Notes under the pieces: model-generated
What the model saw: only the letters and a program-made list of their open reading frames with translations
Told to the model about the DNA's origin: nothing
Database searches by the model: none
Part shown: positions 51,485-52,095 of the stretch, piece by piece
Numbering within the stretch: the first letter of the stretch is position 1
Layout of the letters: each line of letters begins with the position of its first letter
Origin: Dictyostelium discoideum
Lineage: Eukaryota
DNA: 64,000 bases
Direction of reading: 5' to 3'
Assembly (NCBI GenBank): GCA_000004695.1
Contig: CM000152.2
Coordinates: forward strand, 5,120,001-5,184,000
Program-made: the position numbers and the translations under genes

Positions 51485-52095
51485 ATGACTTATCTTTGTG
51501 ATAAAAAAAGAGAAGTTGAAGGGGATATTGATGAAGAGAAAGGTTCTACTAAAAGATTTAAGTCACAAGGTAATATTGAATATGGGAATCAAAAACAATT
51601 TGAACCAATCATCACTCACTCTTCACAGTTGGCTCCTTCATACCAATATCCACCACATCAATATCAATATTATCCACATCAATATCCGCCATACCAACAA
51701 CAATACCCATTACACTATCAATATTATAATCAAAATCAACAACATTTCTTTGATTCCTCTTCTCAAAATCAACAATATCTACCACAGTTTCATCAATATC
51801 ATCAACCTTACTTGATACCTCTTCTCAAAGTCAAATACAACAATATCCCCTGCAATCAACACCACCACCACAACAACCACAATAAAACTTTCAACATCCA
51901 CCACCAAAACCACAACAATCCATTACACAATTAGATATTGAGAAAGAGTTAATTGGTAGTATTGTAATTACATTGTACAATAATAAAACCTATAGAATCA
52001 ATTCTATTGAATGGAATAAAACTCCAGAAACCAAGTTTACTCCCAATATTGGTAGTGATATGTCTTTTGAAAACTTATGGACAAAAAGTTACTAA
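51485..52095 (+). pseudogene. truncated, frame-shifted partial duplicate of the Argonaute gene (Tyr/Gln/Pro-rich N-terminal low-complexity segment + PAZ-region fragment)
   Basis: Frame A (ORF 51485-51934) is SYQYPPHQYQYYPHQYPPYQQQYP..., reminiscent of the GYYPP repeats. Frame B (from 51886) encodes ...[36 protein letters not shown]..*. Across the core that is about 80% identical to [32 protein letters not shown] of the upstream Argonaute. A stop follows after 55 codons. Confidence 0.55.

Follow-up and report, generated by a model that had tools for sequence, protein, structure and literature searches.

A probable pseudogene relic of an old tandem Argonaute paralogue beside agnD in Dictyostelium discoideum

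Downstream of an Argonaute gene, the genome of Dictyostelium discoideum carries a short stretch with a low-complexity segment and part of a PAZ domain. Is this a partial copy of its neighbour, a small gene in its own right, or what is left of a longer one? We addressed this question in a window of 64,000 nucleotides (contig CM000152.2 of assembly GCA_000004695.1, positions 5,120,001 to 5,184,000 of the forward strand), in which the fragment lies at 51485-52095. Coordinates without a contig name are positions in this window.

The fragment and its neighbour agnD

The fragment opens with an ATG and an ORF of 149 aa (51485-51934, + strand, frame 2) that encodes a charged leader and a Tyr/Gln/Pro-rich middle. 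The start codon and leader, MTYLCDKKREVEGDIDEEKGSTKRFKSQGNIEYGNQK, occupy 51485-51595 and the low-complexity tract 51596-51864, both on the + strand, and along the tract the coding sequence passes from frame 2 to frame 1 via a direct repeat. The two 23-nt copies of this repeat (51750-51772 and 51812-51834; 91% identity) have the motif TTGATNCCTCTTCTCAAANTCAA, which encodes the peptide D-S/T-S-S-Q in frame 2 in the first copy and in frame 1 in the second; the frame changes because the copies stand 62 nt apart. Frame 1 is open from ~51750 and still Q/P-rich up to a TAA at 51883-51885, which falls in a residue of QQSIPP-type repeats (51865-51927, +). Beyond the TAA comes a PAZ piece of 54 codons, ending in ...WTKSY*. 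The PAZ remnant (51928-52110, +) represents roughly the first half of the domain, and Pfam PAZ matches the fragment at profile positions 17-72 of 123 (E 6e-11).

An uninterrupted reading frame is absent: the shift from frame 2 to 1 and the TAA at 51883 are followed by a 14-nt deletion that leads to the stop at 52093. No MID or Piwi sequence was detected in 50700-53400 by tblastn with AgnD, which matched the PAZ piece alone. The same 611 nt are found, identical, in an independent D. discoideum assembly (GCA_054883475.1, contig L007), so the fragment is not an assembly artefact. The earlier note on this DNA had listed the Tyr/Gln/Pro-rich segment, the frame change and a PAZ piece of ~55 codons, and all of these are present in the window. 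It missed the in-frame TAA at 51883-51885 that accompanies the frame change, and it misplaced the fragment at 1.4 kb downstream of the Argonaute stop; the fragment begins 0.8 kb past that stop (50692) and its PAZ piece 1.24 kb past it.

The upstream gene (46542-50692, +) matches Pfam PAZ and Piwi, and is agnD because the published qRT-PCR primer agnD-01 matches exactly at 50162-50188 (PMC4559204). Its start codon lies inside a 100-N gap (46442-46541) that stands for 474 nt, the first ~60 codons among them. L007 supplies these at 4585-5058 (MYEPNERKRSNQEDPVDDQQSKRFRPENPDPRALYNPYQ...) and gives the true AgnD start as MYEPNERKRS.... AgnD is a PIWI-clade Argonaute, of which it has been written that "AgnD appears to be a pseudogene" (PMC11014262). 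Alignment with the Logan contigs L001 and L004 places a 41-nt deletion in the gene at ~50006/50007 (50000-50012, +), which takes out GIPKDTMVVGIDVGHN and shifts the agnD frame; the Pfam Piwi match skips profile positions 71-94. We take GIPKDTMVVGIDVGHN to hold the first catalytic Asp of the Piwi domain. The 41 nt are missing from both the window and L007, and are present in five Logan contigs (L001-L005; SRR26869257, SRR28564543 and others) from D. discoideum samples, which have an intact GIPKDTMVVGIDVGHN motif and are 99.74% identical apart from the 41 nt. As judged from these sequences, the agnD lesion seems to be strain-specific or polymorphic and not species-wide, and the description of AgnD as a pseudogene may apply to some strains only.

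Two further observations concern agnD. Its Pro/Gln/Tyr/Gly-rich N-terminal region has an in-frame TAA at 47023-47025 (PPPPH*QGGYY) where L007 has CAA; the TAA is due either to an error in the reference or to another difference between strains. Even with three mismatches allowed, the primer agnD-02 (GTACCAATCCACCCAATGGTACAATGG) finds no counterpart in the window. Its final 18 nt, taken as reverse complement, coincide with a stretch of the agnE-04 primer, and the printed names may be mixed up in that list (PMC4559204).

How far does the fragment resemble agnD? A blastn search against the whole window gave one match outside low-complexity sequence, 51933-52073 with 49128-49268 (+), which is ungapped over 141 nt at 76.6% identity (E 8e-25). 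This PAZ segment ends in ...TFEN; elsewhere in agnD, no nucleotide similarity to the fragment was detectable. By tblastn, AgnD matches the PAZ piece at 57% over 56 aa (E 5e-19), and the ~80% identity reported earlier for the PAZ core is borne out, 27 of 32 residues being identical to AgnD when counted by eye. A collinear continuation in a shifted frame, TYGQKVTNQNQPI, matches AgnD TYDRSVTDYEQPL; both the shifted continuation and the terminal stop (52093-52095) are due to the 14-nt deletion. Outside the 141 nt, local alignments of the flanks with agnD score no better than shuffles. The leaders of AgnD (MYEPNERKRSNQEDPVDDQQSKRFRPEN) and of the fragment (MTYLCDKKREVEGDIDEEKGSTKRFKSQGN) show a weak, position-matched likeness, which is marginal since its score is reached by 31 of 2000 shuffles. 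In six frames of the 64 kb, stop-free Tyr/Gln/Pro-rich windows of 50 aa occur only in the agnD N terminus and in the fragment. The earlier note had held that identity confined to the PAZ core, with no flanking homology, would speak for an independent small gene. Nucleotide identity in the window is indeed limited to the 141-nt piece, so on that reasoning the idea of a duplicate would fail; it is rescued only by comparative data.

The syntenic locus in related species

The MaoC-dehydratase gene 3 kb downstream served as anchor for syntenic loci in D. cf. discoideum (GCA_054859205.1, contig L008), D. dimigraforme (L009) and D. firmibasis (L010). The latter two each have a single Argonaute, 86% and 83% identical to AgnD, respectively, upstream of DSPc and MaoC genes. 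D. cf. discoideum has two in tandem. Copy 1 is 97% identical to AgnD, and copy 2 (L008 3066-6884, ~3.8 kb) is collinear with AgnD residues 10-638 at 69% identity. The order of elements is shared with the window: agnD 3' end, intergenic sequence, copy 2 or the fragment, a small secreted-protein gene, DSPc and MaoC. The interval between agnD and DSPc varies among the species. It holds an NmrA-family gene on the minus strand in D. firmibasis (L010 5430-6516), a 489-aa gene without a Pfam match in D. dimigraforme (L009 3358-4827), and Argonaute copy 2 or its relic in D. cf. discoideum and D. discoideum.

The window aligns with L008 block by block. Positions 50600-50885, at the agnD 3' end, correspond to L008 2058-2356, and positions 51082-51772 to L008 2555-3357, a block that covers intergenic sequence, the leader and the start of the low-complexity tract. 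Its first part, 51082-51484 (+), is a retained 5' flank of copy 2, collinear by blastn with L008 2555-3065 upstream of that gene, and the leader that follows has 73% amino-acid identity to the copy 2 leader (L008 3066-3206). The low-complexity tract resumes at 51812-51864 (L008 3335-3387); between the repeat copies, 30 nt (51763-51792) and smaller blocks are found in the window only. The next 63 nt (51865-51927) stand opposite 1,895 nt of L008 (3388-5282). This is deletion 1, with a largest single jump of 1,670 nt (L008 3613-5282) and a size of ~1.7-1.9 kb.

PAZ sequence begins at the deletion 1 junction (51927/51928). Positions 51928-52062 match L008 5283-5417 at 90% nucleotide identity; 14 nt (L008 5418-5431) have no counterpart and are missing at 52062/52063; and 52063-52110 match L008 5432-5479 at 96%. 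At 52110 (L008 5479), homology to copy 2 stops in the middle of PAZ, and the fragment is without a complete domain. The junction of deletion 2 (52111-52145) takes the place of L008 5480-7102 (~1.6 kb), and everything of copy 2 beyond mid-PAZ, including MID, Piwi and the 3' end, is missing. From 52146 to 53500 the window again follows L008 (7103-8386) through downstream intergenic sequence, the small secreted-protein gene and DSPc. The PAZ piece has 80% amino-acid identity to copy 2 and the corresponding parts of the two sequences are 84-96% identical in nucleotides. Around the PAZ core, too, the fragment clusters with copy 2 rather than agnD.

The fragment has the same position and the same flanks as copy 2, and its missing parts lie exactly between aligned blocks. 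Hence, it is very probably a non-processed pseudogene relic of copy 2, an old paralogue that once lay at full length in tandem with agnD. It has the features of a tandem-duplicate pseudogene: homology beside its paralogue, non-coding flanks orthologous to those of copy 2 and, relative to the longer homologue, two kilobase-scale deletions, two frameshifts and one nonsense codon. Two deletions of ~1.7-1.9 kb and ~1.6 kb have taken out most of the gene. The frame shift at the 62-nt-spaced repeat, the TAA nonsense codon and the 14-nt frameshifting deletion make up the remaining lesions. All that AX4-type sequence retains is the 5' flank, the ATG with its leader, a portion of the Tyr/Gln/Pro tract and ~60 PAZ codons. 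Such a relic would have no protein function; at most, a retained promoter could give a transcript for the 149-aa leader and low-complexity peptide, without PAZ. The description of the fragment as a partial tandem duplicate is right in that it is a decayed, frame-shifted and truncated tandem relative of agnD, but it was not born partial, the gene being full-length in D. cf. discoideum.

Age and decay of copy 2

Copy 2 is itself damaged in the single D. cf. discoideum assembly. It has in-frame TAA codons at L008 5094, where AgnD has Gln, and at 6483, where AgnD has Glu; its C-terminal end is premature, and its N-terminal low-complexity region can be read through only by switching among three frames. 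The AX4 lesions are different ones, an indication that the two sequences decayed independently.

Over AgnD residues 1-420, dS between copy 2 and each of four AgnD orthologues is roughly equal, at 0.90-0.97. Between AgnD orthologues, dS of the D. discoideum gene is 0.79 against D. firmibasis and 0.16 against D. cf. discoideum. In a neighbour-joining tree the four AgnD orthologues form a clade without copy 2 in 100 of 100 bootstraps; the basal position of copy 2 could be due in part to long-branch attraction, which leaves the equal dS values unaffected. Because dS is ~0.9 to all AgnD orthologues and copy 2 stands outside their clade, the duplication is old and probably predates the split of these species. 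At the syntenic loci of D. dimigraforme and D. firmibasis, copy 2 would then have been lost. The local segmental duplication of the earlier note thus holds as far as the tandem arrangement goes; a dS of ~0.9 speaks for an old duplication and not a recent local event.

Over the whole path of copy 2, dN/dS is 0.37, which suggests that the gene was functional during part of its history. The AX4 fragment and L008 copy 2 differ at 46 of 336 nt (dN 0.122, dS 0.289), and this dN is ~8 times that of agnD for the same species pair (0.016). Their dN/dS of 0.42, from a small sample of 112 codons, splits into ~1.0 for the leader and ~0.17 for the PAZ piece. The overall value lies under the neutral 1 and is too imprecise for strict neutrality, and constraint may have persisted in one lineage after the split.

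The Piwi part of copy 2 (L008 ~6230-6881) stands apart. Relative to copy 1 it has a dS of 0.076, lower than the species divergence, and 96% amino-acid identity, whereas the remainder is 45-70% identical. Such a pattern points to gene conversion between copies 1 and 2, recent in date, in the D. cf. discoideum lineage. The AX4 agnD 3' end (50600-50728) is 89% identical to the copy 2 3' end (L008 6816-6940), consistent with a converted Piwi and 3' region.

D. firmibasis has another AgnD-like Argonaute, P0003 (RB653_010018, L006 10001-13341), which is non-syntenic, lies between ADH and MoaE and is 53% identical to AgnD. It is unlikely to be the copy 2 orthologue, with an identity of 38-58%, below that of copy 2 with AgnD, and a node bootstrap of 74 versus 26. 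Short-tract gene conversion was also considered for a 54-nt core of the PAZ piece that is 96% identical to agnD. It was rejected because the comparator, P0003, is a non-syntenic and more distant paralogue and the core is conserved anyway (93% between species among true AgnD orthologues). A former sixth Argonaute in the D. discoideum lineage, with the whole AgnD subfamily now vanishing copy by copy, is a largely supported reading.

Other readings and known systems

The locus already has an entry as a gene. Among database proteins the fragment matches just one, "argonaut-like protein [Dictyostelium discoideum AX4]" (Q54T78/XP_640373.1/EAL66401.1, 165 aa), which joins 51485-51829 to 51943-52095 across an annotated intron of 113 nt (51830-51942, +). 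Another annotated model, KAM9950396.1 (175 aa), gets around the same lesions by splicing differently. That a genuine small gene encodes a 165-aa PAZ-containing argonaut-like protein, with 51830-51942 spliced out, would fit its annotation in two assemblies, the GT...AG dinucleotides at the intron borders, the Pfam PAZ match of the model (E 5e-10) and a dN/dS below 1 in the PAZ piece. We nevertheless regard it as very unlikely. Within the annotated intron lie the TAA, a portion of the repeat and the codons with which the PAZ match begins. With 38% GC, in a window of ~22% G+C, it is the most G+C-rich part of the locus, and its donor is GTCAAA, whereas the bona fide intron of neighbouring agnD (48607-48684) has 8% GC and GTAAGT...AAAAG. 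The stretch is coding-like, Q/P-rich sequence homologous to the coding repeat region of copy 2, and it is probably not a real intron. Since its composition is odd, it is homologous to coding sequence and the two annotations disagree on the splice, the 165-aa and 175-aa proteins would be gene-prediction artefacts spliced around the lesions. The 165-aa product would, moreover, cover just PAZ positions 17-72 of 123, with a stop that owes its existence to the 14-nt deletion. An exact-product look-up of the 165-aa model and the 149-aa ORF across the assembly collection returned no contigs outside the reference annotation, and our literature search on Q54T78, XP_640373 and EAL66401 found no paper discussing the locus.

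RdRPs and Dicers are present in D. discoideum, and animals are known to make endo-siRNAs from pseudogenes. The relic might have been kept as an antisense or small-RNA source that regulates agnD-family transcripts, much as the earlier note proposed, and it has both a retained 5' flank and exact matches to agnD of up to 29 nt. Even so, the proposal found no support and is exceedingly unlikely. The relic and agnD both lie on the + strand, and the only inverted repeats in 46542-52400 are A/T runs. Similarity is limited to 141 nt at 77%, with only nine 21-mers common to the two. An Rfam scan of 45000-54000 gave nothing above threshold, the best match being mir-198 with 27.6 bits against a gathering score of 70. 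The putative target is itself disabled by the 41-nt deletion in this strain and has been described as an apparent pseudogene (PMC11014262), and the independent lesions in two species give a decay pattern that looks neutral. There is a slim chance that a relic with a working promoter and start codon is transcribed and gives rise to RdRP-dependent siRNAs on AgnD-family transcripts, in strains with an intact agnD, or to an active 149-aa peptide.

That the fragment arose directly as a partial, already rearranged agnD duplicate, unrelated to the long D. cf. discoideum gene, is barely conceivable: the window does show just an N-terminal-like piece and a PAZ piece, but nucleotide identity is 84-96% to copy 2 versus 77% to agnD, both flanks are orthologous with the missing parts exactly between aligned blocks, and the PAZ flanks cluster with copy 2.

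With the fragment taken as a decayed copy 2, Q54T78 (UniProt, RefSeq) is best read as a pseudogene remnant that should not enter counts of Dictyostelium RNAi components or PAZ proteins. For amoebozoan RNAi, it would mean that the AgnD branch had an old tandem paralogue and that both genes are decaying in D. discoideum by different lesions, while a sister species shows gene conversion between the two. The locus was already known to databases as a predicted protein; what is new is the proposal that it derives from an old AgnD-like paralogue, the sixth Argonaute, together with the exact extent of the deletions, points of modest, specialist interest and mainly of housekeeping value.

Pseudogenes are sources of endo-siRNAs in mouse oocytes. 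Like these, the relic is a pseudogene beside its relative in a host with active RNAi machinery; unlike them, it has no antisense or inverted arrangement and very limited perfect complementarity. With agnD the relic shares the domain order (charged leader, Tyr/Gln/Pro-rich tract, PAZ), the tandem position and the strand, and both are disabled in this strain. It differs from agnD in representing a separate, older paralogue lineage; MID and Piwi are gone altogether, as are half of PAZ and the greater part of the N region. Copy 2 of D. cf. discoideum is its positional orthologue, with the same flanks, but is still ~3.8 kb long, collinear with AgnD through Piwi, and carries different lesions; copy 1 would recently have converted its Piwi part. 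The relic follows the standard pattern of non-processed pseudogenes: it sits in tandem, still has its 5' flank, has accumulated frameshifts, a nonsense codon and internal deletions, and shows a raised dN. Its only oddity in such company is a protein-coding entry in the databases.
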